IMG/VR virus record: IMGVR_UViG_3300027566_000003
Strand: one strand, 5' to 3'
Length of the DNA: 64,000 bases
DNA from: a virus
Taxonomy: Duplodnaviria; Caudoviricetes
Each line of letters starts with the position of its first letter. Within the stretch, counting starts at the first letter, position 1. The notes beneath the pieces are model-generated. The model ran no database searches. It saw only the letters and a list, made by a program, of their open reading frames with translations, and was not told the origin of the DNA. Made by a program: the position numbers and the translations under genes. Positions 14,677-63,679 of this stretch are shown here, in pieces.

Positions 14677-14751
14677 GCTGGATTAGCTCAGTGGTAGAGC
14701 AGTTGCCTTGTAAGCATCATGTCATCCGTTCAAATAGGATATCCAGCTCCA
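14677..14751 (+). tRNA. tRNA-Thr(UGU)
   Basis: Acceptor GCTGGAT/ATCCAGC, D-arm GCTC-AGTGGTA-GAGC, anticodon loop CT-TGT-AA, TTCAAAT T-loop, encoded CCA. Confidence 0.9.
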
Positions 14752-20427: not shown

Positions 20428-20594
20428 GTTAAAATTTAATATTTTGCTATAGATAATATCTCTAACTATTAAATTATAGTTAGAGATATTTTTGTGTAAC
20501 AAAATAAGTTGCACTAGGATAGGTTGCTTTAAATTAAAGCACTGATAAGTATTACCCATACTTCCACTATAAAAATGGGTAAAGGAGGTTTGCA

Positions 20595-21368
20595 ATGTCA
20601 AATCAATTAGTAAAATTTAAGGAACTGGAATTAATGGAAGTGGATTTTAATAGCAATCTAATCATAGTCGTAAAAATGAAAGACACTGGTAAAAGTTATG
20701 TGGGCGTAAATTGGATTTGTAATGGGATAGGGTTATCAGAAGGACAATTAAAAAATGAGCGTAAGAAAATTCAAGAAGATATTGTCCTTTCTAAAGGGGG
20801 ACGTAATTTAATCCTCCCTACAAAAGGTGGTAATCAGCAGTCTTTATGTCTTGAGTTAGATTTTTTACCTTTATGGTTAGCGAAAATATCTATTACTAAA
20901 GATATGCAACAAAATAAACCTGAAGTTATGGATAAACTTATTGATTATCAATTAAATGCGAAAGATGTATTATCTAAAGCATTTTTTGGAAAACAAGAAA
21001 AATGGGATTTGCAAAGAGAAGTTGGTAAAGTTGATAGAAAAAGAATGACTTCTAGTATCCAAACTTACATACCTAGTGCTAAACCTTTTACTTATGCTTC
21101 TTATACAGACATGACCTATAAAATTTTGTTTAATATGACAGCAAAACAAATAAGAGAAAGTAGAAATATAAATAAAAAAGGTGATCTTACAAGAGATTAT
21201 TTAACAGAAGCAGAATTAAAATTAGTTGATGAAGCAGAAACAATAGTTACTGCTTTGACGGCATTAGGATTTAAGCAAGATTATATAAAGCATCAGTTAG
21301 AAGTTAAGTATGGAAATAAAATGTTAGATGGTAATAAATTTTGTAAATTAGATAATAAAATAAAATAA
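20595..21368 (+). CDS. phage antirepressor (P22 Ant N-terminal-like domain)
   Basis: YVGVNWICNGIGL...CLELDFLPLWLAKIS...LIDYQ; RBS GGAGGT. Confidence 0.8.
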   Translation: MSNQLVKFKELELMEVDFNSNLIIVVKMKDTGKSYVGVNWICNGIGLSEGQLKNERKKIQEDIVLSKGGRNLILPTKGGNQQSLCLELDFLPLWLAKISITKDMQQNKPEVMDKLIDYQLNAKDVLSKAFFGKQEKWDLQREVGKVDRKRMTSSIQTYIPSAKPFTYASYTDMTYKILFNMTAKQIRESRNINKKGDLTRDYLTEAELKLVDEAETIVTALTALGFKQDYIKHQLEVKYGNKMLDGNKFCKLDNKIK

Positions 21369-21420: not shown

Positions 21421-21638
21421 GTGCGTATGGAATGGTTGTTTTTGTTTGGATGTTTTGTGGATAAGTCGATATCTCAAGCAAAATGTTTGAGATATTTGTT
21501 ATTCACTGAAATATGTGGATCAAAGTTGAGAGGTAATTTGGGTTAGCTACCCATCTCTGTACGCCTCTCTTCTTTATATTTTTTTTATTTGGAAATTAGT
21601 ACAGAGAAAATAAAAGTACAGAAAGAAGGAATTTAGAG

Positions 21639-38685: not shown

Positions 38686-38707
38686 TATTTTAGATTTAAC
38701 AAACTAA

Positions 38708-38817
38708 AAAATGGTTTCTTATAAATTTGCGCAAATTTATAAGTGTAATTAAGAAGACTATATTATCCGAGATATAGTCTTCTTTCCCATTCTCTGATTC
38801 GGGAAGGAGAAAATAAT
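38708..38817 (+). promoter_or_regulatory. conserved double-hairpin/pseudoknot leader, copy 1
   Basis: ATGGTT - palindrome 38719-38742 - GTGTAA - 13-bp hairpin 38751-38784 (loop TATCCGAG) - TTCGGG - RBS AAGGAG. Confidence 0.7.
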
Positions 38818-39828
38818 ATGTTAGAAACTAAAGAGTTAAATATAAAACTTTCATCAAAAAATATTAATTATTATGAACAATTGGGATATAACATTCCAAA
38901 ATATAAAGACACTAGTGGTAAACAAAGAGTCAAAAAAGGAACTGAAATAAAAATTAAGATAGAACATTTACCATTACAATCACATAATAAAGTAGATGTT
39001 AAATGTGATTATTGTGAAAAAGTATTTCCAAAACCTTATTATTCTTACATTAATAGCAAAAATACATATGTAGTTAATAAAGATGCTTGTAATGATTGTA
39101 AATATATTAAGATAAAAGAATGTAATTTAATTAATTATGGATATGAAAATACTTCACAAATACCTGAATATAGAGAACATCTTAGATTATTAAAACGAAA
39201 TGATTTTGAGAAGGTAAAACGAGATTTTGAGAATATGAATTTTACACTTTTGACAACAGAAGATGAATATATTAATTCAAGACAATCTATGAAATGTATA
39301 TGCAATAATCATCCAAATATTATTCAAGAAAAAGAGCATTTCCATACCACAAAAGACGTAGGTTGTAAATATTGTCGGGCAGAAAATATTTCTGGAGAAG
39401 GAAATTGGAATTATCAAGGTGGAATTACTCCACTTCACAACTATCTTAGACAACATATATTGCAATGGAAAAAAGATTCAATATTATTTTATAATGGAAA
39501 GTGTGTTTTGACTAATAATACAACGACTATAGTACATCATTTATATTCATTTAATTTAATATTGCAAGAATTAATTCAAGAATTAAAATTAGATATGGAT
39601 TTTACTAAAATTAAAGTGGAAGATTTACCGGATGATCAATTAAAGTTATTAAAAGACAGATGTTTAGAATTACATTATAAATACGGGTTAGGTGTCTGTT
39701 TGTCCGATAATGTCCACAAACTTTTTCACTCACTTTATTCTTATGGCAATAACATTCCAGAACAATTCACAGAATTCCAACAACGTTATAACAATGGAGA
39801 ATTCACATCTCTCCTATTAGCAAAATGA
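38818..39828 (+). CDS. free-standing HNH-type endonuclease with N-terminal zinc domain
   Basis: YYEQLGY..KGTEIKIKIEHL..KCDYC; C-terminal IVHHLYSF...HKLFHSLY.YGNNIPEQF. Confidence 0.8.
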   Translation: MLETKELNIKLSSKNINYYEQLGYNIPKYKDTSGKQRVKKGTEIKIKIEHLPLQSHNKVDVKCDYCEKVFPKPYYSYINSKNTYVVNKDACNDCKYIKIKECNLINYGYENTSQIPEYREHLRLLKRNDFEKVKRDFENMNFTLLTTEDEYINSRQSMKCICNNHPNIIQEKEHFHTTKDVGCKYCRAENISGEGNWNYQGGITPLHNYLRQHILQWKKDSILFYNGKCVLTNNTTTIVHHLYSFNLILQELIQELKLDMDFTKIKVEDLPDDQLKLLKDRCLELHYKYGLGVCLSDNVHKLFHSLYSYGNNIPEQFTEFQQRYNNGEFTSLLLAK

Positions 39829-39942
39829 AAATATTAATAAATAAACTCACAAATAAATAATTATAGATAATGTACAAATCTATAATTATTACCAACAAAC
39901 AAAAAAACAACTCACAAAACCAACAACAAAACATCAAAATAT

Positions 39943-39995
39943 AAGGGGAGGTGGAATGGACATAAAAATCCATCTTACCTCCCCTTATTTTTTAT
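39943..39995 (+). terminator. intrinsic terminator
   Basis: TAAGGGGAGGT...ACCTCCCCTTA followed by a T-run. Confidence 0.7.
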
Positions 39996-40083
39996 TTTTC
40001 AATAAATCTATATTCCAAACAATAATCTCAAAATCCAAAGAATCTAATAATCTAAGAATCAAAAAAGAAAGGGTGAAAATACT

Positions 40084-40440
40084 ATGTCAGTAAGAGCACA
40101 TTGGGTTTTTCATAATGTTGCTACAGAAGCAGGTAATGGAGATGAATACAAAATTGCTAATGTTGGATCAAACACAATATTAGTTTTAGCATTGCAAACT
40201 ATACCAACAGTCGAATCAACACCAGTAACCTACACTATACATTTTGAAGCAAAAGGATTAATCGGTGATTATGTTTCTATACCAGTTTGGGATGAAACAA
40301 AAATGGATTTAGTCCTTAGTGCTACAGAAACAAGTGGTAAATTGTTTACAATCGATTTAACAGGGAAATCAAGTTTCCGTGTGAATCTTGTTTCTATAGA
40401 TGGTGGGAGTTTAAGTGTTCAAGGGAAGGTGATTGAGTAG
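40084..40440 (+). CDS. small beta-rich tail-appendage protein
   Basis: 118 aa, stop abuts the next ATG; resembles an internal segment of 49108..50790. Confidence 0.55.
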   Translation: MSVRAHWVFHNVATEAGNGDEYKIANVGSNTILVLALQTIPTVESTPVTYTIHFEAKGLIGDYVSIPVWDETKMDLVLSATETSGKLFTIDLTGKSSFRVNLVSIDGGSLSVQGKVIE

Positions 40441-43400
40441 ATGGTAGATTTAATTGCTCGTGGTTTATCAAAAACAAATGCTATAAAATATGGCACCATA
40501 GGCATAGACACAGTTCAATCTATACCAGACACAAGTATCATTAGATTCAACTTAGTCAATGGAATGTTTTTTGATTGGGATTTATCATCTACAGACACAA
40601 TGTTTAGATCAACTTATGATACAAATAATAATGGTATAGTTGACAAATCAGAAAAACTAAAAAATAGTACAGATTCTACATTTAATGATGGAAATTATTA
40701 TTTAGATCGTACTAATCATACAGGATTCGATACAGCAAATAAAATAACAGTTAATAAAACTAATCTTATTGAAAATCTTGCAACGTTTACAGGCACTACA
40801 TTACAAGATTTAATAGATTTTATAGATTCTCTTGATACATTTAAAAATGGTGAATTAAATCTTGGAACAAAAAATGCAGTGAATTCATGGAAAATTATAA
40901 AAGAAGATGATGATTTATCATTTTATAGATATGATGAATATAATTCTCAATATAATTTAATTACTAGTTTTGGAGCATCCGTAAAATCCGATAAATTCAT
41001 ATTGACGGAATGGCAAGGGAGTATCCAAGGTTTAAAAGGAGATGGAACTTCAAGAACTTTATTGAAAACATCAGTTGATGATAATGGAGTTTTAATTGGA
41101 AATTATTATGGTCGTGCTGGTTTAATTAGTAATGGATTATATTTTTCTATGTATCCAACTGGCGTTGATTCTACATTTGTTTTAAATTCATGTACTGATT
41201 CTGAAGGAACTTCTAATGCTCAATCAATAACAAAGTTCACAACAAGATATCAGCCATTAGTACATGGTTTTTATACTGGAATTAGTGGACTTGATTTAAT
41301 ATCTGTTCCAAGTGGTACAACTGTTCGTGTATGGGTTGAGTCAGATGACCAAGACGACATAATGTTTGAAACTATAAATTATATAAATTTTAAAAAGGGA
41401 TTAGGCTTATCAGTATCTATTGGTGTAAATAACATTGTTTTTTATGAACCATTCCCAATTGATAAAGATACTCCCTTTTATTTAAATATAGAATTTAGCA
41501 ATGCCGTAACAATTAAAGGGTCTATTACTAACAATAATCAAGTTGGAGATCCGAAATTTTATCCTATGGGCAGTATTATCAGAGAAACTGCTGCATTTGA
41601 AAAATTAGCGACTCAAGATTGGGTTACTGAGAATACAAAGAAAACTGACAGTATGACAACAGATAGTAGTATATTATATGCTTCTGCAAAATCAGTATCT
41701 TCATTATCTAAGGTTGTATCTGCTATTTCTGGTGGTGCATCTCCATTGGTTCCGATTTCTTGTGAAGACTTTTCATTGCTACAAACTGGCACAAATGGAC
41801 AGCATTATATTTTTACCAATGATGGGATAATAAATACTCAAATAATAAGTAAACGTGATCATTGCTATGTAGTTGAAACTTTTGATTATACGGAAATTTT
41901 ACCGACTCAATATATACAAGAAGAAGATTATGTTGTAATTTCAAATGAAGTTGTTTCAAATGGTGCAATTTTTATTACAAATATTACACCTAACACTTTA
42001 GGTAAAAATGTAAGTAAAACTATGAACGATTATCCTAATGAAGCAACAATAAATAGTATTGCATCCGATGATGATACATGGACAGTTACAGTAATTTGGG
42101 ATAGAGGGTCAGAAGAATATTGTGGTCAACCTAAAGTTAATGGTATTGATGTAATAAATATTACAAATGTTGGTGGAGGAACTTTTACCGGAACAGTGAT
42201 AGTTACAACTAGCGAAATTACTGATAATGCAATAACCGCAACTTTTGGAACAGCAAGTTATAGAGTAGGTGTAGTTGTAGAAACTCCTCCAATAATTACA
42301 ACATTAACACTAAATAATACTCCAACTGATTATCCCATATCTTCATGGTCTGTTCAACAAACAGAGGTTAAAGTTGGAGACATTATGACATTTGATATCA
42401 TATCGGATAAAGATATTGTTGCTGTGGAGGTAGCATCTTATGGTGCAGGATCATCTAAAATTATAAATGTAACACAAGGTGCGACATTTACTGATTTAAC
42501 ATTTACGGTAGCATCTACTGGTTTAGTATCATCTAGTAAAACAATTAAAGTACGTGTGAAAAGTCCTACTGGGTCTTGGTCTGATTATGTAGAAAGTTCA
42601 AATAGTATTATATGCAATGACTTAACTCCTACAATTAGTGTGAATACAATAACATATCCATCAACTCAAACTGCATTAAAAAATAGCGAAACTGCAAGTG
42701 TTACATTTAATACTTCAAATCAAACAAGTGTAATTGTGACTGCTATTGGTTCAGATATTTCAATAAGTGGAGTTAATTCTACTACTGGTGCTTTTACAGC
42801 AACTAGAATTGGTGGAAGTTATGTTGATAATATTGATAATTTTACTGGTGTTGCTAGAAAAGATAGTAACGGTTCAAGTGTAAGTGTAAATGGATGTATT
42901 TTTATTGCAAATATCGCTCCTGTATTGTCTTCACAAAGTTTATTAACTTATAATGTAATGTCGGGCGTTGGCACTGTTACAAATACCCTTACTTTTAGTC
43001 AAAAGGTAAAAATTAAAAGTATTTCAGCATTAACTGCCGGAACACTGGTAACTGGAACAACTTCGACTTATACAACAACATATGGATTAGGTATATCGGC
43101 ACAATCCTCAGATACACATTCTAATACAGCAAATACAACAAATTTAGTAGTTACAGGACTTAGTGGAATTGATTCTGTAAGTATTCCAATCAACTATTAT
43201 ATTAGAGGATTTGCTAATATTGTTTTGAATTTTACTTACTCTGAATTATCAAAAGTAATTGGAACTATGGTTACAGATGTTACTAAGTGTGTAGTATCAG
43301 GAAAAATATTAAGTACGCCAATATTCGAAATTGCTAAAGAATATATTACTTATTCCAGTGTGGTTTTAGCTACTGCTGATAAATGGAGTATAAGTGCAGA

Positions 43401-43491
43401 TGGTTTGAATTTCTTAATTCCAGATGCAGTAAAATCATTCGGATATACAACGGGAGTTGATTGTGAGATTAACATATCTGAAATTTATTAA
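40441..43491 (+). CDS. large virion structural / tail-fibre-like protein
   Basis: 1016 aa, Thr/Ser-rich beta repeats, YDTNNNGIVDKSE motif. Confidence 0.65.
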   Translation: MVDLIARGLSKTNAIKYGTIGIDTVQSIPDTSIIRFNLVNGMFFDWDLSSTDTMFRSTYDTNNNGIVDKSEKLKNSTDSTFNDGNYYLDRTNHTGFDTANKITVNKTNLIENLATFTGTTLQDLIDFIDSLDTFKNGELNLGTKNAVNSWKIIKEDDDLSFYRYDEYNSQYNLITSFGASVKSDKFILTEWQGSIQGLKGDGTSRTLLKTSVDDNGVLIGNYYGRAGLISNGLYFSMYPTGVDSTFVLNSCTDSEGTSNAQSITKFTTRYQPLVHGFYTGISGLDLISVPSGTTVRVWVESDDQDDIMFETINYINFKKGLGLSVSIGVNNIVFYEPFPIDKDTPFYLNIEFSNAVTIKGSITNNNQVGDPKFYPMGSIIRETAAFEKLATQDWVTENTKKTDSMTTDSSILYASAKSVSSLSKVVSAISGGASPLVPISCEDFSLLQTGTNGQHYIFTNDGIINTQIISKRDHCYVVETFDYTEILPTQYIQEEDYVVISNEVVSNGAIFITNITPNTLGKNVSKTMNDYPNEATINSIASDDDTWTVTVIWDRGSEEYCGQPKVNGIDVINITNVGGGTFTGTVIVTTSEITDNAITATFGTASYRVGVVVETPPIITTLTLNNTPTDYPISSWSVQQTEVKVGDIMTFDIISDKDIVAVEVASYGAGSSKIINVTQGATFTDLTFTVASTGLVSSSKTIKVRVKSPTGSWSDYVESSNSIICNDLTPTISVNTITYPSTQTALKNSETASVTFNTSNQTSVIVTAIGSDISISGVNSTTGAFTATRIGGSYVDNIDNFTGVARKDSNGSSVSVNGCIFIANIAPVLSSQSLLTYNVMSGVGTVTNTLTFSQKVKIKSISALTAGTLVTGTTSTYTTTYGLGISAQSSDTHSNTANTTNLVVTGLSGIDSVSIPINYYIRGFANIVLNFTYSELSKVIGTMVTDVTKCVVSGKILSTPIFEIAKEYITYSSVVLATADKWSISADGLNFLIPDAVKSFGYTTGVDCEINISEIY

Positions 43492-43498
43492 TTTGTAA

Positions 43499-43607
43499 TA
43501 AAAATGGTTGTCTAATAAGGTTGCAAATTTATTAGACGTAAAACAAGAGTCATGCTGTCACATGACTCTTTTCCATGTAAAACTTTTTGACAGAAAAGGA
43601 GAAATAA
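43499..43607 (+). promoter_or_regulatory. conserved double-hairpin/pseudoknot leader, copy 2
   Basis: ATGGTT - CTAATAAG-GTTGCAAA-TTTATTAG - CGTAAAAC - AAGAGTCATG/CATGACTCTT with loop CTGTCA complementary to TGACAG at 43588-43593. Confidence 0.75.
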
Positions 43608-45080
43608 ATGAAAAAAGATTTATATAAACATATAGATTTAACTAATATACCAAAAAATAAAAGCAGATATAATTGGTTAAATTCTATCGGTAAAGAATGT
43701 AAATTTATATATGATGATATTTCTGGTTATGTTACAATAGTTGATTATAATTATAAGAAGCATAAATTGTATATTAAATATCTCGATAATGAGATTTTTG
43801 AAATTAATACTGATAATTTTTCTGATTGTGCTTTTGGTAAATTGTTAGGAAAAATAACTAGTGAATTTAAAATTAAATTAGGCAAAACTATAAAAAACAA
43901 AAAACAAGATTTTATTATTATAGACAGGGAAAAACATATAAGTGCGAATAATAAGTGTTTTGATAAGATATATAAATATCATTGTAATAAATGTGGACAT
44001 GAAGATTGGTTAATAGAACATAATTTATTAAAAGGAATTGGATGCTCCTGTTGCGGTATAACTCCTAAAAAAGTTATTGAAGGAATTAATGATATCCCAA
44101 CAACTGCCCTTTGGATGGTTAAGTATTTTCAAGGTGGATACGATGAAGCAAAACTATATACAAAATCAAGCAGTAAAACAATTTTCCCGATTTGTCCTGA
44201 TTGCGGAAGAATAAAGAATAGACCTATGTCTATTAATTCAATTTATACAAATAAAACAATAAGGTGTACTTGTAAAGACGGTAGGAGTTATCCAGAAAAA
44301 ATAATGTTTAATATATTGGAACAATTACATATTGATTTTTTAAGTGAATATTCTCCAGATTGGATTAAACCATTAAGATATGATTTTTATTTTGAATTAG
44401 GTAATAAAAAATATATTGTCGAAATGGATGGTGGTATTGGTCACGGAAATAAAGTAGTATATAATAATTCAATATATACCGTAGAATATGCACTAAACAT
44501 TGATAATTATAAAGATAACCTAGCAAATATTAATAATATAGATATTATTAGAATTGACTGTAAAATTTCTGATATAGATTATATAAAAACTAATATATTT
44601 AATACAAAATTGTTAAATATATTAGAACTTTCAAGCATTGATTGGATAAAATGTGATGAATTTGCTTTAAGTAATTTAGTAAAAAAAGCTTGTGAAATAA
44701 AAAAAGAAAACGAAAATTTATCAACATCTGATATCGGTTTATTATTACATTTAAATCGTAGTACAATATGTAAATATTTAAAAGAAGGAAGTAAATTTGG
44801 TTGGTGTAATTATAATCCAAATAATGAGAGAATGAAATCGTTAGGTCATAAAGTAAATATTAGGAAAGTTGAGGTATTTAAGAATGATACATCTTTAGGA
44901 ATTTTTGAAAGCACAAATGATATAGAAAGAAAAAGTGAAGCTTGCTTTGGAGTAAAATTATTACAGTCTTGTATATCTCTAGTTTGTAATGGTAAACAAA
45001 AATCACACAAAGGATTTATTTTCAAGTATATAAATAACGAAAACCAAGAAGTGGTTAATAATTTATCCACTTCTTTTTAA
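43608..45080 (+). CDS. free-standing Vsr/DUF559-like endonuclease with zinc fingers and NUMOD1-like HTH
   Basis: RYDFYF...IVEMDGGIGH; CNKC, CSCC, CPDC; C-terminal FESTNDIER...ISLVCNGKQKSHKGFIF. Confidence 0.75.
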   Translation: MKKDLYKHIDLTNIPKNKSRYNWLNSIGKECKFIYDDISGYVTIVDYNYKKHKLYIKYLDNEIFEINTDNFSDCAFGKLLGKITSEFKIKLGKTIKNKKQDFIIIDREKHISANNKCFDKIYKYHCNKCGHEDWLIEHNLLKGIGCSCCGITPKKVIEGINDIPTTALWMVKYFQGGYDEAKLYTKSSSKTIFPICPDCGRIKNRPMSINSIYTNKTIRCTCKDGRSYPEKIMFNILEQLHIDFLSEYSPDWIKPLRYDFYFELGNKKYIVEMDGGIGHGNKVVYNNSIYTVEYALNIDNYKDNLANINNIDIIRIDCKISDIDYIKTNIFNTKLLNILELSSIDWIKCDEFALSNLVKKACEIKKENENLSTSDIGLLLHLNRSTICKYLKEGSKFGWCNYNPNNERMKSLGHKVNIRKVEVFKNDTSLGIFESTNDIERKSEACFGVKLLQSCISLVCNGKQKSHKGFIFKYINNENQEVVNNLSTSF

Positions 45081-45105
45081 TGTAAAAATAAAGGAGGTTA
45101 AAGTA

Positions 45106-47661
45106 ATGTCAATGACTAGTGACCAAATTTATGATTGGATTGTAGCCAATTGGACTTCAAAATCAAATTATAGAGAAAGTGCTGATGTTGGTATTCCAAC
45201 AGATACACCATCTCATTTTTTAATACATAACGATATTACAACTAAAAAAATATATACATGGGATGGAAATACGTGGTCTGCTGGATTAGGTGGAGGATCT
45301 GGTTCATTGACTGTTCAAAATGTAGCATCTGCAACAAATATAATAACTGCATTTAACAAGTTAATTTTAGTTGATGCATCATTGAATAATGTCACAGTAA
45401 TTCTACCATCTTCTACATCACTAACTATTGGACAGAGTTTATGCGTAAAAAGAACTGATAACTCAAATTATACATTAAGAATAATTGCTAATGGAACTGA
45501 AATAATTGATGGTAGTACAAATTCTATCTATTTATACGGGCAAAATGATTGTGTGACTTTAACTAGCACAGCAGTTGGTAAAATACATATTAGTGCTGAT
45601 AATCGTAATAGTACAGGGTCAAGTGCAAGTTATTTAAAAGTAACTAGAGGAACAACAGTTGCAATTGCAGATAATACAAATATAAAATTTCCTACTGTCG
45701 AGGATTCCCAAGGTACTGATATTTCATATGATACATCTACAGGAATTGTTAAATTAAAAGCAAATATTAAATATAGACTTAGATGTGCAATTAATATGAT
45801 GACATTTTCATCTGATAATGCTTATGCAGAGTTAAAATTTTATAACATAACAGCATCACAATTTGTTGGAATTTCTGGTTCCGCAAATCCAATCACAAGA
45901 AATACTAATGAAGCTAAAATTTTAGAAACAGAATATACTTTTACTCCAATTGTTGAAACTCAAATATCTCCTAGATTAACAGTTTCTTCTAATATTTCTA
46001 GTATTACAACAGCTTGGTTAGAAGTTGAAGAAATAAGTCACCAAGCTACAGTAATTCAAACTGTAGACTATTGTTTTGCAAGAGTTACTTCTAATGTTAC
46101 TACTGCAAATACTATTATTCCAGTTTCTCTAGTAGTTGGAAATATTGAAGTATCAAATAATATGTTTTACCTGAAAGTAGGTAGCACATATGAGTTAGAA
46201 GCATTTATAGAGTTTAATGGGAATACTGGTTCTGTTTGGGCAGAATATGTTTGGACTGATTCTGTTGGAACTTATTTACCAACTAGTACTACAGGTTTAT
46301 CTGTTCCTGTACAAAGTGCGTCAGCAGATTCTAGTTTACCAACAAAAGCTATTATTACTCCTACTCAAAATATGTCAGTAAAAGTAATGACAACAGGTAC
46401 TGTTGCAGGTATTACTGGTATAGCACTTACTAGGTCATATTTTAAAATTACGCAAATTGGATCAACGGCATGTACAGATAGTATTACCTTAAATACCATT
46501 AACTCAACTTCTTCATCAGGACTAAATGTTCATACTAAAAATACTATTACACCGACAAAATTAGGTGTAACAAATGAATTTGTTGGACAAAATGGTTCTG
46601 GTTCTGATTATGAAATTAGTGCGCTTAATTTAGGAAATGATATGTTTTATGCTTCTGTTTCAACAAAAATACCAGTTGGTGCATGGGGTGATGGTTGCAG
46701 AATGGATTTTAGTACACCTGCTGGTTCGAATAGTAATGTTCAGATTCCTAGAATGAGTATATTGCCGTTTTCAGGGAATGTGGGAATTGGTACAACCGAA
46801 CCAAATATTAATGATAAAGTAACCATTAAAGGTACGACTACTGATGGAACAACTAATATTATCAATGGGTTAGATAACAATGATATATCTGTATTTAAAG
46901 TAGATACTAACGGAAAATTAACAACCAATGATGTTGTTACTAATATAGTCAGTACGGCTGATGGAACTAATGGTTATGTAACAATGAATTCTGGTGGTAC
47001 TAGGACGGGTTTTTTTGAGTGGAAAAAACCAGATGATACAAGATTAGGGTTTATGGGAGACGGAGAATTTGATATAAATCTAGCATTAGAAAATGATGCT
47101 AATTTTAAGATTGTTAGTACTACTGGTGGATTTCTTGTACCAAAGATGACGAGAGCACAAAAAGATGCGATTATTTCTCCTATTTCTGGACTTGAGGTGT
47201 ATGTGACAGATGAAAGTTCTGGTAAGTATATTTATAACGGCACAAGATGGGATAAAGTTAGCAACCTTGCATATCTAAAAGCAAGTAATATAGTGGCAGT
47301 TAATCCAGCAGCTAATATATTACTTAACTTCAGTTCAGGTGTTGTGTCAAATGGGATTAAAACCAATCATGGTAATGGACAGTATACACTGTATCCCGGG
47401 GTTTATGAATTAATGGGGGTACAACTCTTGAATGAAAATGATGCTGGAATAAGTTATCAATTTTATAACTACACAACATCTAGTTATACAGGTGAACAAG
47501 GTAATAATGCCGATGTTGCAGGGTCAGCAGGAACAGGAAGTCCTGCATTTGCTATATTGGAATGTACAGTTGACACACAGATCGGACTTAGATGCACAAA
47601 CGATAGCGCGACAGTTACGGCCTCATTGGGTAACTGGTTGAAGATTAGACAGATATCATAG
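45106..47661 (+). CDS. tail fibre / receptor-binding protein
   Basis: 851 aa; GNVGIGTTEP, GFLVPKMTRAQ motifs; Thr/Ser-rich. Confidence 0.7.
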   Translation: MSMTSDQIYDWIVANWTSKSNYRESADVGIPTDTPSHFLIHNDITTKKIYTWDGNTWSAGLGGGSGSLTVQNVASATNIITAFNKLILVDASLNNVTVILPSSTSLTIGQSLCVKRTDNSNYTLRIIANGTEIIDGSTNSIYLYGQNDCVTLTSTAVGKIHISADNRNSTGSSASYLKVTRGTTVAIADNTNIKFPTVEDSQGTDISYDTSTGIVKLKANIKYRLRCAINMMTFSSDNAYAELKFYNITASQFVGISGSANPITRNTNEAKILETEYTFTPIVETQISPRLTVSSNISSITTAWLEVEEISHQATVIQTVDYCFARVTSNVTTANTIIPVSLVVGNIEVSNNMFYLKVGSTYELEAFIEFNGNTGSVWAEYVWTDSVGTYLPTSTTGLSVPVQSASADSSLPTKAIITPTQNMSVKVMTTGTVAGITGIALTRSYFKITQIGSTACTDSITLNTINSTSSSGLNVHTKNTITPTKLGVTNEFVGQNGSGSDYEISALNLGNDMFYASVSTKIPVGAWGDGCRMDFSTPAGSNSNVQIPRMSILPFSGNVGIGTTEPNINDKVTIKGTTTDGTTNIINGLDNNDISVFKVDTNGKLTTNDVVTNIVSTADGTNGYVTMNSGGTRTGFFEWKKPDDTRLGFMGDGEFDINLALENDANFKIVSTTGGFLVPKMTRAQKDAIISPISGLEVYVTDESSGKYIYNGTRWDKVSNLAYLKASNIVAVNPAANILLNFSSGVVSNGIKTNHGNGQYTLYPGVYELMGVQLLNENDAGISYQFYNYTTSSYTGEQGNNADVAGSAGTGSPAFAILECTVDTQIGLRCTNDSATVTASLGNWLKIRQIS

Positions 47662-47682
47662 TAATTAACAAAATAATAAATT

Positions 47683-47794
47683 AAATATGGTTACTTAATA
47701 AGAGTCGACGCTTATTAAGTGTAAAACGAGAGACTATGCCGTTACATAGTCTCTTTTCCATTATATTTAATCTCAATGACGGAAGGAGAATAAA
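47683..47794 (+). promoter_or_regulatory. conserved double-hairpin/pseudoknot leader, copy 3
   Basis: ATGGTT - CTTAATAAG-AGTCGACG-CTTATTAAG - TGTAAAAC - GAGAGACTATG/CATAGTCTCTT with loop CCGTTA complementary to TGACGG at 47777-47782. Confidence 0.75.
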
Positions 47795-50873: not shown

Positions 50874-51410
50874 GTGATAAAGAATCAACAAAAGTACATA
50901 CACGCATACGATTTATCTATGGAATCAACAGGATTTTGTATATTTGATAAAGATATGATTCCTGTATTAATCGATTCTATCCCTACTAAAAAAAACCAAT
51001 CTCATGGGAAAAGATTAAAAGTAATTTATGATAAGTTAATGGAATTAAGAGATAAATATCCACCTGAAGTCGTCGTGATCGAAAGAGGATTTAGTAGGTT
51101 TAATATGGCAACTCAGGTGATATACAGGGTTCATGGAATTTGTCAATTGGCTTATCATGATATAGAGACCGTCTACTACCCTCCCAAAACCGTTAAAGAA
51201 GCAATTTTAAGTGGTAATGCAACAAAGAAACAAGTGCAAGAGGAAATTAAGAAAAGATATCCTGATTTAGTTTTTAAGAATGAGGATGAATCAGATGCTT
51301 ACGCTGTAAGTTTAACATATTTTATTAAAACAGGTAAATTGGAATGGGAAAAAGATATTATTTTGAAAGAAAAGAAAATTAGAAAGAAAAAGGTTGTTGA
51401 GGATAGATAA
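50874..51410 (+). CDS. ruvC: RuvC-like Holliday junction resolvase
   Basis: AYDLSMESTG, VVIER, PKTVKEAILSGNATKKQV, DESDAYAV. Confidence 0.88.
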   Translation: MIKNQQKYIHAYDLSMESTGFCIFDKDMIPVLIDSIPTKKNQSHGKRLKVIYDKLMELRDKYPPEVVVIERGFSRFNMATQVIYRVHGICQLAYHDIETVYYPPKTVKEAILSGNATKKQVQEEIKKRYPDLVFKNEDESDAYAVSLTYFIKTGKLEWEKDIILKEKKIRKKKVVEDR

Positions 51411-51480
51411 TTTAATTTGTTGTAGAACTTTAGACACTTTAGATAAGTGTCTTTTATTGTGCGACAAATTAGTTGTACGT

Positions 51481-51596
51481 AAACAGACTAGGGAGAGCTA
51501 CCCGAAAGACACAACGCCTTAGTGTTTGTCTGTTTATTATCTTTTTGAGAAGAAATTTTAAGGTTAATAAAACAATATGAAAGGCGGTTGTTGGAG
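51481..51596 (+). promoter_or_regulatory. three-way-junction leader with anti-RBS loop
   Basis: AAACAGAC/GTCTGTTT outer stem; inner loop CGCCTT complementary to AAGGCG at 51581-51586. Confidence 0.6.
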
Positions 51597-53164
51597 ATGT
51601 TAGAAACAAAAGAAGTAGAAGTAGTTTGGTCTAATTGGGGAAAAGAATATTATATTCTAAAAGGTTATTGTTTTACTAGAATAGGCGACGCATTTATAGT
51701 TAAAATTGAAGATGTGCATCCTAATTCAAATATAACCATCGAATATGAATGTGATTATTGTAAAACACCCCAAAAAATATACTTTAGAGATTATAACAAA
51801 CAAAAAAGAGATATTATAAATAGAGATTGTTGCAGTAAATGTGCTCATTTTAAAGTTGCTGAAATAAAGAAAAAGAAAGCAGAGTTAGGAATATTAAATA
51901 AAACGATTCTGGTTATTGGAAGTTTTATCCCAATAGATTAAAAGAATTACATATATTTTTAAAAAATAATAAATTTGAAGATATCTTTAATATTGGTTAT
52001 TCACAATTAAAAGAATCTTTTTATCAAAATAAAGATAATGTAATTGATATGATATTTGAATTAAAATTAAATATTTTTGAAGTATGCAATAATTTACATA
52101 AGTTATATTTCTACATTAATGAAAATAACATACAAAATATTATAAATATTTTTATTGAAAGGCATAAATACTTTCCTTCCCTATTAGAAATGTCAAATAA
52201 TTTACAAATTTCTTATTCAATTTTAGCTAAATGTGGTGGTTATTATTATATAAAGAATAGTATGGGATATTATGATAATGACATTGGTAGTAAATTATTA
52301 GATACAAAAAATAGTATGGAGAATTTTGAAAAATATAAAAATGTTAGTGGTATTTATAAGATAACTAATATTAAAAATGCAAAAGTGTATATTGGGCAAG
52401 CAATAGATTTGTGGCATAGAATTAGTTCTGGATATATTTATACATTGCCTAAAGGAAAATGTCACAATGTTCACCTTCAAAGAGCGTGGGATAAAGACGG
52501 AGGAGAAAGTTTTTATATAGAAGTTATTGAAGTTTGTGATGTTGAATTTTTAACGAAAAGAGAACAATTTTGGATTGATCAAACTCAATGTTTTAACAAC
52601 AAATTTGGTTATAATGTTTTGGAATTTGCCGAAAGTAATAGAGGTGCTAAAATATCTGAAGAAACAAGGAAAAAGATGAGTGATGCTTCTAAATTAAAAT
52701 TCGGGTGGAATCATACACAAGAAACAAAAACTATTTTATCAGAAAAACATTCTAAATCTATTATTCAATTAAATTTAGATGGTATTTATATTAAAGAGTG
52801 GAAAAACTCCAATGATGCGTCAATTACATTAACTGGTAAAAATACAAGTGCTAATAATATAAGAGATTGTGCAAATGGGCGAGGTGCTTCAGCTTGTGGT
52901 TACATATGGATATATAAAGATAAGTATAATGAATTAACTTTTGACAAAATGGATTATGAAAATAGAGATACAACTAAACGAAGGGTTATTCAATTAAGTT
53001 TAAGTAATGAATATATAAAAACATTTAGGACAATAACTGAGGCAAAAAATACAACAAAAGCAAGTAATATAAGTGCATGTTTAAATGGTTTACAACATAA
53101 AAGTGGTGGATTCAAATGGATGTATGAAGAAGATTATTTAAATAAAATAAAGGAAGTGAATTAA
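51588..53164 (+). pseudogene. frameshifted GIY-YIG endonuclease with NUMOD3/NUMOD1-like repeats (track ORFs 51588..51941 and 52049..53164)
   Basis: One A added to the A4 run at 51900-51903 joins both ORFs with no stops; SGIYKITN..VYIGQA, HTQETKTILS, FRTITEA...ISACL. Confidence 0.8.
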
Positions 53165-53168
53165 ACTA

Positions 53169-54230
53169 ATGGCAAACAAAGGTCGTGGAAGAGTATATAA
53201 CCCAATCTATACAAAGCAAGAATGGGAATTAGTAAATCCCAAAAACAAAGAAGCAATGAATGACTTTCTTGAAGAATATAAGCAAAGAAAAAAGAAGAAG
53301 TCAACTATTGATGCTTACTTTCAGGATTTGAGAATTATTCTACTTTATGTTAAAAGATTTTGTGATAATAAATGTATATTTGATTTAGGTAAAAAGGATT
53401 TTAGGAGAATTAGCATTTGGTTTAGTGATGATTTAAAACTATCTAATGCAAGAGCAAATAGATTAATGAGTGCGGTTAGGTCTATGCTTTCATATGCAGA
53501 AGATGATGACGAAACAGAATATGACAATAATGTTGCTCGTAAGGTGAAAGGTTTACCGAAAGAACCAGTTAAAACAAATGAAGACGATTTCTTTATGACA
53601 TTTGATCAAGTATGGAGAGTTAGAGAAGAATTATTAAAACGTGGTAAATTACAGCTTGCAGTTTTACATATGCTTCTATTCGATTCTGGTGGACGAAGGA
53701 ATGAAGTATATCAGATTAAAAAACAAGATGCTCAAGAAGGAAATAAGACAAATATAGTTGTTGGTAAAAGAGGAAAATCATTTCCTTTAGTATTTTTAAA
53801 TGACACTAGAGAATTAGTAAGACAGTTTATATCAGAACGTGGCGAAGACAATTTAGATGCTGTATGGATAACTGGTAAGGGTGAAAATAAAAGAGAAGTA
53901 ACGTACGGAGCTTTATATGATAGAGTTGTTGCTATTTCTGCTATATTGAGTGAATTAGAAGGAAAAGAATTAAATATTTTTCCGCATTCATATCGCCACA
54001 GTCGCGCAGAATGTCTCTTACAGGGGCAAGATCCACGTATCATTGATCCGTCTACGGGATTGCCTAAGAAGTTTACTTTAGAGGAAGTCCAGCTATTTCT
54101 TCATCATTCAGATCCGAAAACAACCCAAGATTACGCGAAAGATCATAGTGAAGAAATGATTGATACCATGTTTAATTTTGATGGTGAAGTTAAAGTTAAG
54201 AAACCGGAAGAAATCACACCAACAACATAA
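53169..54230 (+). CDS. tyrosine recombinase (YomM-like)
   Basis: SGGRRNE (R), GKRGK (K), HSYRH (HxxR), LHHSD (H), TQDY (Y); catalytic set intact. Confidence 0.92.
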   Translation: MANKGRGRVYNPIYTKQEWELVNPKNKEAMNDFLEEYKQRKKKKSTIDAYFQDLRIILLYVKRFCDNKCIFDLGKKDFRRISIWFSDDLKLSNARANRLMSAVRSMLSYAEDDDETEYDNNVARKVKGLPKEPVKTNEDDFFMTFDQVWRVREELLKRGKLQLAVLHMLLFDSGGRRNEVYQIKKQDAQEGNKTNIVVGKRGKSFPLVFLNDTRELVRQFISERGEDNLDAVWITGKGENKREVTYGALYDRVVAISAILSELEGKELNIFPHSYRHSRAECLLQGQDPRIIDPSTGLPKKFTLEEVQLFLHHSDPKTTQDYAKDHSEEMIDTMFNFDGEVKVKKPEEITPTT

Positions 54231-54384
54231 AAAACACATTTCATTCCAATACACCATTTTTAAGACCCTTTAATATCAATGGTTTCAGAGAATCGCCAAC
54301 CTTGGCGATTTAAATATTTACACCAGATTGAAATCCTCTCTATTTTTAGAAGAGGATTTTTATGTGCTGTAAATCGCACTAAAC

Positions 54385-54482
54385 ACTAGCAGGAGTAATG
54401 GCTTAATTACCCATTATCAAAGGGTACTCTCCCCTATCCTGCTAGTCAATATCTTTTAGTGAGAGTAAAATAAGAAAGAGAG
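54385..54482 (+). promoter_or_regulatory. three-way-junction leader with anti-RBS loop
   Basis: ACTAGCAGGA/TCCTGCTAGT outer stem; inner loop TACTCTC complementary to GAGAGTA at 54461-54467. Confidence 0.65.
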
Positions 54483-56456
54483 ATGATATTAATAATGATT
54501 AATTACAAAGAATTTCTAGAGCAAATGGAACTTGAAACAAAGAAAAATCATGTAATAGAAGCAGTAAACTTGACAATTAAGGACTTGGCAGAATATAATG
54601 TAATTGTACCAGAAGATAGTGAATATTACAAAGGATTAAGCCAATTACTTTATTATATAATGTTTTACCCGTTACCTAATAAGAAAGCAATTATTAACTT
54701 TCCTACGGGTTGTGGTAAATCAACTGCTATGAATGCAGGAATTTCCTATATGTTAAGAAATAAAATATTACAACCATACGCAGGAACAATAATATTAAAA
54801 CTTACAAAAGATGATTGTAATGAAACAGTTAGAGAAATCAATAAGAAAGCAAAATTAGATTTAGCATATGCATATCACTCTGGATTTGATAAACTAAACA
54901 ATAGAAAAAGAAGTGATATTTCTAATGATGAACTAAAAGAATATCCAGTAATTGTATTAACTCATAGTGGATATTTACAACTTATTGACAAAGATGATAT
55001 AAATAAACTATGTGAATGGTCTGATAAAAGAATTAATACAAAGCGTGGAAAATATAATACATATTATAGGGAGAGATTAATTGTGGATGAAGCAATTAAT
55101 AATGTTCAATTTATGACAGTTACAATGAAGTCAATTTCTGATATGGAAAATGCAATCATGAATATGGGAAACGAAGATATTTATGATAGATTTAATGGAT
55201 TCGTGACCAAAATCAAGAAAGAATTTTTGAAATCGTATGACACGAAGAAGAACAGTGTATTCTTTTGCGAGTTCGACAATATCGAAGTACCAGATGGGTT
55301 AGATGAGTTATTTTTCTCTTGTAAAGATAAACAAGCCAAAGACTCATATATGGCAATAAGAACAATGTTAGCAACTGGTGGTTATGTAAATATTCATGAG
55401 GATATTAAGTATAAATCAATCATCACCTACAAGTACATAGATATTAATAATCCATATTTCCATAAAGTAACATTAGATGCTACATCAGGAATTAATTATC
55501 TATATGAAATTGATAGCAATTCAGAAGTAAGAGATTTGCCGCAAATAAAATCTTATAAGAATATGCATCTAAATATATTTAATGGAGTCACCGGATCATC
55601 TGCTTCAATGAAAAAAGGATTAGAAGATGGATTGTTAGATGCAATCATTGAAGATATTAAGAGTAAGATTATTGGGGAAGAGAAAGTTTTGATTGTAACT
55701 AATAGTGAAGAACGAGATAAAATGATTATTGAAGCATTAAAGGGATATGAAAAATTAGACCAAATTGATGTCACCCACTATGGACGTACAGTAGGGAGTA
55801 ATAAATGGAGTGATTTTGACAAAATATTTGTATTAGGGATTCAATTGTTACCAGATGCAATATATCCTTTAATGTATTTCACTAGTTCTGTAAAAGAAGA
55901 AGAATTAACAGCAGAGAAATTTAATTCATTAGATACTACTCTTGTTCCAATAAAAGGCAATAGAAAATACAAACAAAAAGAATTTGAGAAAGTTAAAGTG
56001 TCTACTATTTCTGCAATGGTTGTGCAAACTTTAAACAGAATCAAATGTAGAGGTTATGCAGATGGAGAAATTCCTGAGACCCACGCCTATTTCATAAATC
56101 GTGATAAAGAGATAGATGCTCTCATTGCCCAAGCGATGCCAGATATTCAAATTACGTATAATTGGGGAATTGAATATAAGTCAAGAAAAAGTGGAAAAAC
56201 AGTAGAGAACAAGAAGGATGTTGTTGAGACATTAATTGAATTCTATGAGAAATTTAGACTTGACGAAAATTATAGAAATAAATTATTTGTCGATGAAATT
56301 TTTACTGAAAAAGGATTAAGTAAAGCAAAAATAAAAGAATTATTAGATATTAAGACAAATACTTTTAATATTTCTATGAGTAAACCTTTGATGTTGCAAT
56401 ATGTAAAAGATTATAATATTGATTTAATCTCTAATAATAGATATGTAAAATTTTAA
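54483..56456 (+). CDS. SF2 (DEAD-like) helicase-domain protein with possible C-terminal HTH
   Basis: FPTGCGKST, VLTHSG, IVDEA, LDATS, QTLNRIKCR. Confidence 0.75.
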   Translation: MILIMINYKEFLEQMELETKKNHVIEAVNLTIKDLAEYNVIVPEDSEYYKGLSQLLYYIMFYPLPNKKAIINFPTGCGKSTAMNAGISYMLRNKILQPYAGTIILKLTKDDCNETVREINKKAKLDLAYAYHSGFDKLNNRKRSDISNDELKEYPVIVLTHSGYLQLIDKDDINKLCEWSDKRINTKRGKYNTYYRERLIVDEAINNVQFMTVTMKSISDMENAIMNMGNEDIYDRFNGFVTKIKKEFLKSYDTKKNSVFFCEFDNIEVPDGLDELFFSCKDKQAKDSYMAIRTMLATGGYVNIHEDIKYKSIITYKYIDINNPYFHKVTLDATSGINYLYEIDSNSEVRDLPQIKSYKNMHLNIFNGVTGSSASMKKGLEDGLLDAIIEDIKSKIIGEEKVLIVTNSEERDKMIIEALKGYEKLDQIDVTHYGRTVGSNKWSDFDKIFVLGIQLLPDAIYPLMYFTSSVKEEELTAEKFNSLDTTLVPIKGNRKYKQKEFEKVKVSTISAMVVQTLNRIKCRGYADGEIPETHAYFINRDKEIDALIAQAMPDIQITYNWGIEYKSRKSGKTVENKKDVVETLIEFYEKFRLDENYRNKLFVDEIFTEKGLSKAKIKELLDIKTNTFNISMSKPLMLQYVKDYNIDLISNNRYVKF

Positions 56457-61862: not shown

Positions 61863-62046
61863 TATGCCCAAATTTAATATTGATAGTTTTAGCAGACCTT
61901 TGGACGCTCTGGTTTGCTATTAAATAAGCAACAATCTGCAATTGCAATGCAGTAGAAGGGAATACACTCCTCCCTTCTTTTTTTTGTTGCCTTTTTATAT
62001 GGAATTGTTTGGAGTGTGGGTTTAGTAATGAGTAAGAATATAAAAT

Positions 62047-63679
62047 TTGAAGGAGTGCTGGAATTATATGAGAATTAAATGGTCAAAAGAAGAAACGAAT
62101 TTTTTAAAAGATAATTACATGGTCATGACAGATGAAGAATTGGCGGGAAAACTAGGAAAAACAACGATACAAATAAAAGATAAGAGAAATCATGAGCATT
62201 TAGTAAGGATAACAATTTTTTCCAAAGAATTTTTAATATCTGAATTTTGGCGTTTCTTTAATGAAAATGAAAGATATCCTTTAAAAAAAGAATTAAAACC
62301 AGCAATTGGTTATCCATCAGGAGTTAATTATGAACGTAAATGGGGAAGTTGGAATAGTTTTTTAAAAGAAATTGATGTATTAGGTGACAGTGGGTGGTAT
62401 AAATGTGATGAACAAGTTTTGATTGATTATTATACTAATAGTTCCATCGAAGAGATTAATGATAGATTAATGATTAAACGTAATAAAGAAATAATAATGA
62501 AAAAGGCAAACAATTTAGGATTATACATAAAAAAAAGAAGTAGTGAAGAATATCAATTAATTATCCAAGATTATTTAAATGGAACAAATTGTCAAGAAAT
62601 AGCTAAGAAATATGGATATAGTGATGGAGCTTCAATATATTATGTTCTTAAAAAATACAACATTGAATTAAATAGAAATGATATATGGTCTGAAGAACAA
62701 ATAGAAAATCTTAAAATATATTACCCCTACAACAGAATGGGAGGAATTGTTAGAATTATTAAAACCATTTGATAAAGATGGAATTATACATAAGGCATCA
62801 GATTTGAATATAAAAAGATTGCTAAATTCAGAATGGTCAGAAGAAGATATTAATATTTTGAAAGAATATTACGGAGAAAAATCTACAAAACAATTAGCAA
62901 TATTATTGCCATATCGTACAGAATCATCAATAGTTACAAAAGGATATAAATTAGGATTAGAGTCAAGAATAAGATGGTCTGATGAAGATATAGAAATATT
63001 TATCAAAGAATACCCAATTAAAACAAATAAAGAGTTAGCAAACATATTTAATAGGACACCTACTGCAATCATGGGAGAGGCGTTAAAATTAGGATTAAAG
63101 AAAGATATTGAAGAACATTTATATATTATATATGATGAAGAAAAATTAATACGTGAATTAAAGGAGTATGCTCAAATTTTAGGAAGAACACCTCTTTCAT
63201 ACGAAGTAAATGAAAATAAAAATATGGCACATTCCAATACATATAGACGTTGTTTTGATGGTTATGTTGATGCTTGTCAAAAGGCAGGTTTAGAACCAAA
63301 TTATGAAGGAAATATATTTTCTCCAAGGACATATAGATCAAAAAATAATGATTTGTGTCTTTCGCAGCCAGAATTAATTATTACTAATTTATTTATAGAT
63401 AATGTTTTAGAGTACGAGAAAGAAGTATATTATTCGTCTTTTTCAGACGATCCTAGGTGTGGTTATAAGAGATGTGATTGGTTTTTAGTAGATGGTATAA
63501 TTGTAGAATATTTTGGTATGGAAAGGAGAGAATCTTATCAAAAAAGAATGTTAGAAAAACAAGCTATATGTTCAGATAATAATTTAATATTAATAGAACT
63601 TTATCCAAAGGATATGAGAAAAGGGCTAGAAGGTTTAATAAATAAATTTAAAGAGTATGGTATTGAATTAAGTCAATAA
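62047..63679 (+). pseudogene. frameshifted repeat-rich free-standing endonuclease (track ORFs 62047..62772 and 62747..63679)
   Basis: Removing one C from the C4 run at 62724-62727 joins the ORFs; W(S)xE(E/D) repeats, homing-endonuclease-associated repeats (FSKEFLISEF, YDEEKLIRELKE..GRTP), C-terminal CDWFLVDGIIVEYFG. Confidence 0.75.

Follow-up and report, generated by a model that had tools for sequence, protein, structure and literature searches.

In a 64,000-nucleotide (nt) stretch of phage DNA (the window), which is the minus strand of the 122-kb IMG/VR virus record IMGVR_UViG_3300027566_000003 (Duplodnaviria; Caudoviricetes; estimated 66% complete), two 5' leaders, A and B, were analysed. 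They lie in the gene order RuvC-like resolvase, leader A, split GIY-YIG homing endonuclease, tyrosine recombinase, leader B, helicase-like gene. Each leader folds into a three-way junction whose second hairpin loop has two complementary sites further downstream, the second of them in the Shine-Dalgarno (SD) region of the following gene, and the loop and its sites change together among homologous leaders. We consider it probable that A and B belong to a family of cis-acting anti-SD leaders that tune the translation of mobile cargo genes (homing endonucleases and the helicase-like gene), and this proposed mechanism appears well supported by the comparative evidence.

The original prediction had placed three-way junctions with the same topology in front of the two cargo genes and had noted that the second inner loop of each was complementary to the region of the ribosome-binding site (RBS). 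Every helix it named was found in the sequence and in both minimum free energy (MFE) folds obtained with RNAfold, and the complementarity could be sharpened to two sites in each leader. The features of leader A are as follows (coordinates are those of the window).

51481-51550, + strand: element A, an int-alpA-type three-way junction (Rfam RF02996, MFE fold, model R2, covariation).
51559-51563, + strand: leader A site 1 (decoy), TAAGG, the proximal complement of loop 2 (duplex -5.8 kcal/mol).
51581-51586, + strand: leader A site 2, AAGGCG, the SD region, 10 nt before the ATG at 51597; a 6-nt complement of loop 2 (duplex -10.1 kcal/mol).

In element A the outer helix P1 pairs AAACAGAC (51481-51488) with GTCTGTTT (51528-51535), hairpin 1 is GGG/CCC (51491-51503), J2/3 is GAAA, and hairpin 2 is GACAC/GTGTT (51508-51526) with the anti-SD loop AACGCCTTA (51513-51521), of which the portion CGCCTTA is complementary to both TAAGG and AAGGCG. 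A U-rich tail begins at 51536. The stability of this fold was unremarkable compared with shuffled sequences (z -1.24, 18/200 shuffles), and the case for element A is therefore made by its Rfam match and its homologs. A permissive Rfam scan recovered the element as RF02996 (int-alpA RNA) with 39.5 bits (gathering threshold 35.8; E = 6e-6 locally and 1.2e-4 over the whole window); a whole-window scan at the gathering threshold missed it because of its fast filters. The model alignment contains the int-alpA junction nucleotides (CUAG, CGAAA, UG), the loop motif CCUUA and the U-rich tail, and our own type-A model R2 scored the element at 69.3 bits. Integrase genes nearby in mobile elements are a further mark of int-alpA, and here an integrase gene (53169-54230) lies between A and B. 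We assign element A to Rfam int-alpA as a bona fide member.

The corresponding features of leader B are given below.

54317-54361, + strand: upstream cassette with the motif TTTACAyCAGATTGAA (possible -35), a hairpin (54331-54359) with a -10-like hexamer in its loop, and a T-run.
54364-54379, + strand: P0 hairpin, GTGC-TGTAAATC-GCAC, a copy of the palindrome TTGTGy-N7-8-rCACAA, between the upstream T-run and P1.
54385-54446, + strand: element B, a type-B three-way junction (MFE fold, model R1, covariation).
54461-54467, + strand: leader B site 1 (decoy), GAGAGTA, a 7-nt complement of loop 2 (duplex -8.7 kcal/mol).
54478-54482, + strand: leader B site 2, GAGAG, within the SD region AAGAAAGAGAGATG, 12 nt before the ATG at 54495.

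P1 of element B pairs ACTAGCAGGA (54385-54394) with TCCTGCTAGT (54437-54446), hairpin 1 is TAATGG/CCATTA (54396-54416) and hairpin 2 is AGGG/CCCT (54421-54435) with the anti-SD loop TACTCTC (54425-54431); it was considerably more stable than shuffled sequences (z -4.35, 1/200 shuffles). The junction nucleotides are G, UCAA and A and the loop is UACUCUC, without the CUAG, CGAAA and UG of type A. No Rfam match to element B was obtained at E<=5 (51350-54600), and RF02996 was absent from B also at E<=1 in the whole-window scan; element B was therefore filed as a related variant and not as an int-alpA member. A tRNA-like or ribozyme reading of element B was dropped, as neither ARAGORN nor Rfam gave a match there.

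The hairpin-2 loop had exactly two complementary sites of at least 5 nt within the following 85 nt in 18/18 phage leaders (in 3/18 loop 2 was read by hand, the MFE fold having mis-set hairpin 2). Site 1 lies 10-23 nt after P1, and site 2 lies 8-26 nt further, ending 9-15 nt before the start codon in the SD region. The loop classes and their sites were the following.

Loop CUCUC: site 1 GAGAG(U), site 2 GAGAG.
Loop CUCGC: site 1 GCGAGU, site 2 GCGAG (a class seen in two otherwise different leaders).
Loop CUCAC: site 1 GUGAGU, site 2 GUGAG.
Loop GCUCUC: site 1 GAGAGC, site 2 GAGAG.
Loop UCCUUA: site 1 UAAGGA, site 2 AAGGA.
Loop GCCUUG: site 1 AAGGC, site 2 AAGGC.
Loop CGCCUUA: site 1 UAAGG, site 2 AAGGCG.
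Loop GUCCUA: site 1 UAGGAC, site 2 AGGAC.

When loops and tails were exchanged in a swap matrix, a loop found two sites only in tails of its own class. In dinucleotide-shuffled tails the probability of at least two sites was 0.002-0.09 per loop class (product over the 8 classes ~1e-14), and hairpin-1 loops, which served as a negative control, had no site in 7/8. Since the corresponding probability was 0.02 for leader A and 0.07 for leader B, the case for the loop and its sites is built on covariation across relatives rather than on either leader taken singly. For type A, the site-1 equivalent covaries with the loop in L002A, L004A-L006A and L017; among the relatives of leader B, GCGAGT occurs with CTCGC, GTGAGT with CTCAC and GAGAGC with GCTCTC, and the middle base of site 2 changes with the loop (GAGAG, GCGAG, GTGAG). 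A MAFFT alignment from hairpin 2 to the start codon (A8) aligned site 2 well but not the loop, and the loop/site pairs were therefore tabulated separately. Compared with the generally known 3'-end sequence of 16S rRNA, the variable 'address' base falls where the SD departs from perfect complementarity (AGAAAG-N-GAG, AAGG-C-GG). The constraint on this base therefore cannot come from the ribosome and points to pairing with the loop.

A generic three-way-junction descriptor applied to intergenic regions was uninformative (868 matches in this AT-rich genome), and the two-site loop test was used instead. In the 122-kb record two-site loops were found before 4/136 genes, compared with 0.7 expected; these were A, B, the leader at 61927-61991 (described below) and one low-complexity case. 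In nested folds the SD was not paired with the junction in leader A or B, and the accessibility of loop and sites in the nested ensemble was not decisive. Two other readings of the sites were discarded. A leader peptide served by site 1 was rejected because the tails inspected had no consistent start codon 5-13 nt downstream of it, and CsrA-type GGA sites were dropped because type A would provide them (AAGGA twice) whereas the GAGAG of type B does not.

Orthologs of the helicase-like protein with 80-91% identity were present in five IMG/VR loci (L002-L006). Type-B leaders precede them in L002 and L003 and type-A leaders in L004 and L006 (the L006 leader scored 54 bits with RF02996), and in L005 a type-A leader is separated from the helicase start by an inserted homing-endonuclease gene. 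A P1 pattern scan for type B gave further true copies in related contigs. The type-B covariance model R1 detected 11 sense copies in relatives at 45-87 bits and element B, the single copy in this genome, at 80 bits; the type-A model R2 detected 7 phage copies at 59-74 bits and Escherichia coli int-alpA copies at 26-32 bits. The fold is conserved in these homologs with compensatory changes, in line with the original idea of a shared structure. In the type-B alignment (A4) 97.3% of the cells were paired and 10/20 pairs had changed on both sides, with 0/500 shuffles as high; in the alignment of type A with the E. coli copies (A6) the values were 94.4% and 13/16. All three helices were supported in both types. 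Slid controls were only 27-70% paired, which indicates that the helix covariation signal is specific, and slid and shuffled controls were far lower. Type B contains 14 cells with G.U pairs, and these, together with the fixed orientation relative to the downstream gene, argue for an RNA read from the + strand.

The two leaders had been described as unrelated in sequence, which holds for the junction interiors only. Considered as whole leaders, they are in our assessment subtypes of one recombining family, B being a new subtype with a different junction. This is because the orthologous position in front of the helicase-like gene is taken by A in some relatives (L004, L006) and by B in others, and because A and B have a common upstream cassette (TTTACAyCAGATTGAA, a hairpin with T-run, and the palindrome TTGTGy-N7-8-rCACAA), and are combined in a recombinant, L017, in which the 5' cassette and P1 are nearly identical to leader B and the interior (CGAAAGACAC...) and tail (...GAAAGGCGG) come from leader A. 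The leader B cassette is conserved in L002, L003 and L017. The palindrome precedes most leaders of both types, with equivalents in L002-L006, L017, L018, L020, L023, L030 and L035. Changes in the P0 stem are compensatory (TGTGC/GCACA, TGTGT/ACACA, TGTGTC/GACACA), with G.U pairs in L003, and the palindrome could act as an operator or as a hairpin in the RNA. In the window and in L002, L003, L020 and L023, the gene immediately before the B leader encodes an integrase. A RAGATH-18 RNA (52.8 bits, above the gathering threshold of 44.9) was seen upstream of the helicase leader at L004:1165-1232; PMC11061315 links RAGATH-18 to IS607-type TnpB elements.

Using blastn with the RF02996 consensus, int-alpA was found in 220 E. 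coli genomes. In six loci that were analysed the motif is located between the stop codon of a tyrosine integrase (roughly 10-30 nt after it, by locus coordinates) and a variable hypothetical gene, which is followed by a helix-turn-helix regulator. The order of integrase and leader is thus common to the E. coli loci and the phage B leaders. The loop, site 1 and site 2 sets of the six copies were ACCUUA/UAAGGU/AAGGU, GCCUUA/UAAGGC/AAGGU (with a G.U pair) and ACCCUA/UAGGG/AGGGU. Given that the E. coli copies obey the same rule, the two-site architecture is a property of the whole family and not of these phages alone.

In the mechanism that we propose, A and B would be 5'-leader RNAs transcribed from the + strand together with the following gene. 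The second hairpin of the junction would display a loop of 7-9 nt that mimics the 3' end of 16S rRNA and could pair either with site 1, the decoy, or with site 2, the core of the gene's own SD. With loop 2 on site 2 the RBS would be hidden, and with loop 2 on site 1 it would be left free. The leader would in this way set or switch the translation of its cargo, most plausibly so as to keep the expression of nucleases and other mobile-element genes low. The data show the fold with its covariation, the two complementary sites, their joint change with the loop and their placement ahead of the start codons; pairing within the RNA, control at the level of translation, the direction of that control and the cause of a shift between the two sites are inferred from these.

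The leaders do precede unrelated cargo genes, as had been claimed, and the two cargo genes of A and B are given here.

51597-53164, + strand: leader A cargo, a split GIY-YIG homing endonuclease made up of the open reading frames (ORFs) 51597-51941 (N-terminal) and 52049-53164 (GIY-YIG) (phrog_12131, phrog_314, Pfam PF01541).
54495-56456, + strand: leader B cargo, a helicase-like protein of 653 amino acids, its start set by homologs (MINYKEF).

The gene behind A had been called GIY-YIG, which is right for the homing endonuclease as a whole; the ORF directly after the leader is the N-terminal piece of the split gene and not the GIY-YIG ORF itself. As the second frame is open from 51902, a single frameshift within 51902-51941 separates the two ORFs. 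The frames overlap at 51902-51941, with the frameshift near an A-rich run, and the break could be due to a pseudogene, an assembly error or programmed shifting. Similarly, the gene behind B is helicase-like as stated, with its true start at 54495 and not at 54483; the protein had a weak Pfam DEAD match (E = 3.8e-4, below threshold) and no PHROG match. Across the family the cargo comprises HNH_repeat, SegE-like GIY-YIG and treble-clef zinc finger genes of homing-endonuclease types, the helicase-like gene and several unknowns. The gene inserted in L005 (L005:2359-4003) is a treble-clef zinc-finger gene of homing-endonuclease type (Pfam DUF4379) that sits exactly between the type-A leader and the helicase start codon. 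The leader tail there is nearly identical to that of the helicase leader of L004, and given this tail and the placement the inserted gene appears to have taken over the helicase leader. In T-even phages, expression of homing-endonuclease genes is shut off by RNA structures in which the RBS is sequestered (PMC2988022), a precedent that provides a biological rationale for leader control of such cargo.

The two-site scan also gave a third leader within the window.

61927-61991, + strand: third leader, a three-way junction (two-site scan, fold), with hairpin 2 at 61954-61978 and the loop ATACACTCC; the whole feature extends over 61927-62057.

According to the predicted fold its P1 is ~7 bp (GCAAC/GTTGC core), unrelated in sequence to A and B. 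Site 1 is GGAGTGT (62011-62017) and site 2, GGAGTG (62052-62057), lies in the SD of an HNH_repeat gene (Pfam PF18780), whose start probably lies downstream of the listed TTG at 62047. Neither Rfam nor R1 or R2 detected this leader, and it was placed with A and B provisionally, by its architecture only.

Several leaders in the window with a single site were observed as well. Before a P22-type antirepressor gene (20595-21368), the segment 20515-20588 contains a terminator hairpin, TTGTGTAACAAAATAAGTTGCAC and a junction-like fold, whose second hairpin loop TTACCCA is complementary to TGGGTAA abutting the SD AAGGAGG, this being the only site. A fold at 21527-21607 has an outer stem GAGAGG/CCTCTC, an inner stem GGGT/ACCC and a single-stranded TCTCTGTAC complementary to GTACAGAGA 30 nt downstream; it precedes a gene (21709-22530) whose N-terminus resembles that of ORF 51597. 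Three paralogous leaders (38686-38817, 43492-43607 and 47662-47794) have the arrangement ATGGTT-hairpin-GTAAAAC-hairpin-CCAT, and their second loop (CTGTCA, CCGTTA, TCCGA) is complementary, if G.U wobbles are allowed, to the bases immediately 5' of the SD AAGGAG.

Several points weigh against the cis-acting anti-SD mechanism. Site 1 forms the stronger duplex in 14/18 leaders, leader A (-5.8 compared with -10.1 kcal/mol) not being among them, and because of this the SD would be mostly free at equilibrium and a trigger or kinetic element is missing from the model. If the mechanism is correct, something must shift the balance between the sites, be it kinetics, transcript ends, a factor, or free junction copies acting in trans. 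The promoter is postulated, and scans for sigma-70-type promoters near A and B were no better than shuffles. The only promoter-like match near leader A, TAGACA-18-TATTGT (51431-51460; 1 found and 0.6 expected from shuffles), overlaps the arm and T-run of the hairpin at 51432-51456 and not its loop; in the leader B cassette TTTACA-18-TATTTT was not above chance (2 found and 1.5 expected), and a promoter there with its -10 within the hairpin loop is a conjecture. Helix covariation was counted on alignments that had been fitted to the models, and this biases the result in favour of the structure. The pseudoknot counts came from a custom script that is not phylogeny-aware, and many of the 18 leaders are close relatives, with about 6-8 independent loop classes. 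Finally, the single-site leaders (20547-20588; 38686-47794) pair beside the SD and not with it, and masking of the SD may for this reason not be the common denominator.

Other explanations were weighed against this mechanism. Rfam types RF02996 as 'Gene; sRNA', and in a trans-acting small RNA (sRNA) transcription would end at the U-rich tract after P1, which is present in the Rfam consensus and most phage copies, and loop 2 of the free junction would pair with SD regions in trans, on its own read-through mRNA or on others; the two sites could then serve one cis and one trans loop. The identity bases of the loop, however, match the SD of the adjacent downstream gene and no other tail class, as predicted for action in cis. 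An intrinsic terminator has a G+C-rich stem with a T-run within 0-2 nt, whereas the T-run here usually lies 5-7 nt after P1 (first T4 run at 6-7 nt in A and B), and the terminator scan called no junction, A and B included. In two of the E. coli copies, L044 and L045, P1 is not followed by a U-run, and we consider a trans-acting sRNA unlikely. The original prediction favoured a riboswitch-like or protein-sensed fold, in which binding to the junction would decide whether loop 2 takes site 1 or the SD. A loop with two partners does follow the logic of an expression platform, and the conservation of the type-A CUAG, CGAAA, UG and loop motif from E. coli satellites to low-GC phage suggests a specific tertiary fold or binding surface. 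Nevertheless, a riboswitch class has a conserved ligand-binding core in all members and genes of one pathway, while here the junction nucleotides differ among A, B and the third leader, and the loop/site logic is retained in type B and the third leader without the type-A nucleotides. The mobile-element cargo is heterogeneous with no common metabolite, and no candidate partner protein co-occurred consistently. Given also that loop-to-SD pairing explains the covariation, sensing of this kind found no support and seems improbable, although type A, whose junction is shared across phyla, might respond to a ligand or protein.

It is very unlikely, in our view, that the junction is a 3'-end element of the upstream gene, acting either as a terminator of branched form or on the integrase gene as a sib-like retroregulator, with the SD complementarity being secondary. 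In six E. coli loci it closely follows the stop codon of an integrase gene, in five phage loci an integrase gene lies upstream of the B leader, and P1 with its U-rich tract resembles a terminator, all of which would fit this explanation. Leader A, however, follows a RuvC-like gene, the leaders of L004 and L006 have no upstream integrase, canonical terminator hairpins distinct from the junctions are already present ahead of A and B, and the covariation of both downstream sites with the loop would be left unexplained. A junction latched by a pseudoknot of loop 2 with site 1 might instead block 5'-to-3' decay (RNase J) or 5'-end-dependent entry of RNase E and so protect the cargo mRNA, as an exoribonuclease-resistant or 5'-stabilising fold. 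The topology is the same as that of flavivirus exoribonuclease-resistant RNA (xrRNA; PMC7603331), and site 1 is the stronger partner in most leaders. Such a fold gives no reason why the SD (site 2) should change together with the loop. No counterpart of PK1, the essential xrRNA pseudoknot between 5' end and junction, was seen, and no search aimed at it was made. E. coli, which carries int-alpA, is not known to have a 5'-to-3' exonuclease, and the explanation is highly improbable. Hardly credible is a site acting at the DNA level, such as an attC-like folded single strand or a homology patch at a cassette junction, on which the adjacent tyrosine recombinase would act. Such a site would account for the mosaicism. 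Compatible with it are an integrase gene beside many copies, the breakpoint of the L017 recombinant near P1 and the different cargo behind similar leaders, and in T4-type phages the PeSL cassettes set an example of regulatory cassettes that serve as crossover points (PMC2839356). Several points speak against it. The fold is specific to one strand owing to its G.U pairs, the family lacks the P1 sequence conservation expected of recombinase arms, nothing at the DNA level would account for the tie to the SD and start codon, and ordinary homologous exchange in a conserved cassette can yield mosaicism.

Among known systems, the preQ1-I and SAM-II riboswitches have a hairpin loop that pairs with a 3' tail including SD bases, and the resulting H-type pseudoknot controls translation initiation in a ligand-dependent manner in front of coherent metabolic genes. 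The loop-to-tail SD pairing predicted for leaders A and B is similar, with the differences that the tail offers two alternative partners and that the scaffold is a three-way junction. The int-alpA motif itself is reportedly among the candidate RNAs of Weinberg et al. 2017. No study explaining the function of int-alpA was found in the literature searched, and the main text of the 2017 survey (PMC5737381) is silent on it. Element A has the same junction, the CUAG/CGAAA/UG nucleotides, the CCUUA loop, a U-rich tail followed by AAGG and the association with integrases and mobile elements, and the E. coli copies obey the same two-site rule. On the other hand, the Rfam entry is an sRNA of unknown function with no annotated pseudoknot in its consensus, while the evidence presented here points to a cis-acting SD leader; element B and the third leader lack the junction nucleotides and are not recognised by the model; and the setting here is uncultured low-GC phages whose cargo is mostly homing endonucleases.

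The RBS hairpins of T-even phages (I-TevI, I-TevII, I-TevIII, segB, mobE; PMC2988022) are similar in that a structure in the leader RNA occludes the SD of a selfish nuclease gene and limits its translation, as is proposed here. In those hairpins the SD is contained in a local stem and a late promoter within the structure provides relief, whereas in leaders A and B the SD does not lie in a local stem but is matched by a distant loop displayed on a junction, with a decoy competing; the likeness is thus one of mechanism only. In flavivirus xrRNA (PMC7603331) a three-way junction is likewise present and the apical loop of its last hairpin forms a pseudoknot with a downstream single strand, but this RNA confers nuclease resistance, requires a second pseudoknot with the 5' end and has no relation to an SD. 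The PeSL cassettes of T4-type phages (PMC2839356, PMC4122927) are, like the leaders, conserved regulatory cassettes (terminator, promoter, stem-loop) that flank variable genes and form points of modular exchange; they differ in being promoter-terminator motifs that act through DNA homology, without a junction RNA or loop-to-SD complementarity.

The remaining features of the region are listed below.

50874-51410: RuvC-like resolvase gene, next before leader A in the gene order.
51432-51456, + strand: terminator-like hairpin and T-run closing the RuvC-like gene, directly upstream of leader A (terminator scan, hairpin 51432-51452; sequence).
53169-54230, + strand: tyrosine recombinase/integrase gene (Pfam PF00589, phrog_1), between A and B and directly upstream of leader B.

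The DNA of the window is AT-rich, with a G+C content of 0.34-0.46 in the relevant leader elements. The phage appears to have no close named relative in the phage collection searched, in which neither megablast with 51000-55000 nor tblastn with the helicase-like protein gave a match. Elsewhere in the window, a tRNA-Thr (UGU) gene was called by both ARAGORN and Rfam at 14677-14751, and a gene-free stretch of 1 kb contained a below-threshold Rfam match to RAGATH-27 (15973-16058; 59 bits compared with a gathering threshold of 76.1, E = 2e-5).

This work contributes the subtype B and a covariance model for it, a recombinant between B and A, an orthologous position at which B takes the place of A, a third leader and the loop/site variants of E. 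coli. With these results int-alpA, a catalogued motif without a known function, becomes a directly testable hypothesis, namely a cis-acting anti-SD leader, and the covariation of loop, decoy and SD holds both in uncultured phages and, independently, in E. coli islands. Sequence-based models miss entire subtypes, namely type B and the third leader, and the Rfam entry therefore understates the size of the class. More tentatively, and with more doubt than confidence, int-alpA, type B, the third leader and possibly the single-site leaders could together constitute a class of cis regulators, widespread and programmable by sequence, that act on mobile-element genes and in which a junction-displayed mimic of the 16S 3' end would toggle between decoy and SD, private 'address' bases would prevent cross-talk, and the signal might be, for example, ribosome availability, transcript length, or a phage or host factor. 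The conserved leader cassettes are points of modular exchange between phages, and the leaders may explain how homing endonucleases and other mobile cargo are kept at a tolerable level of expression.

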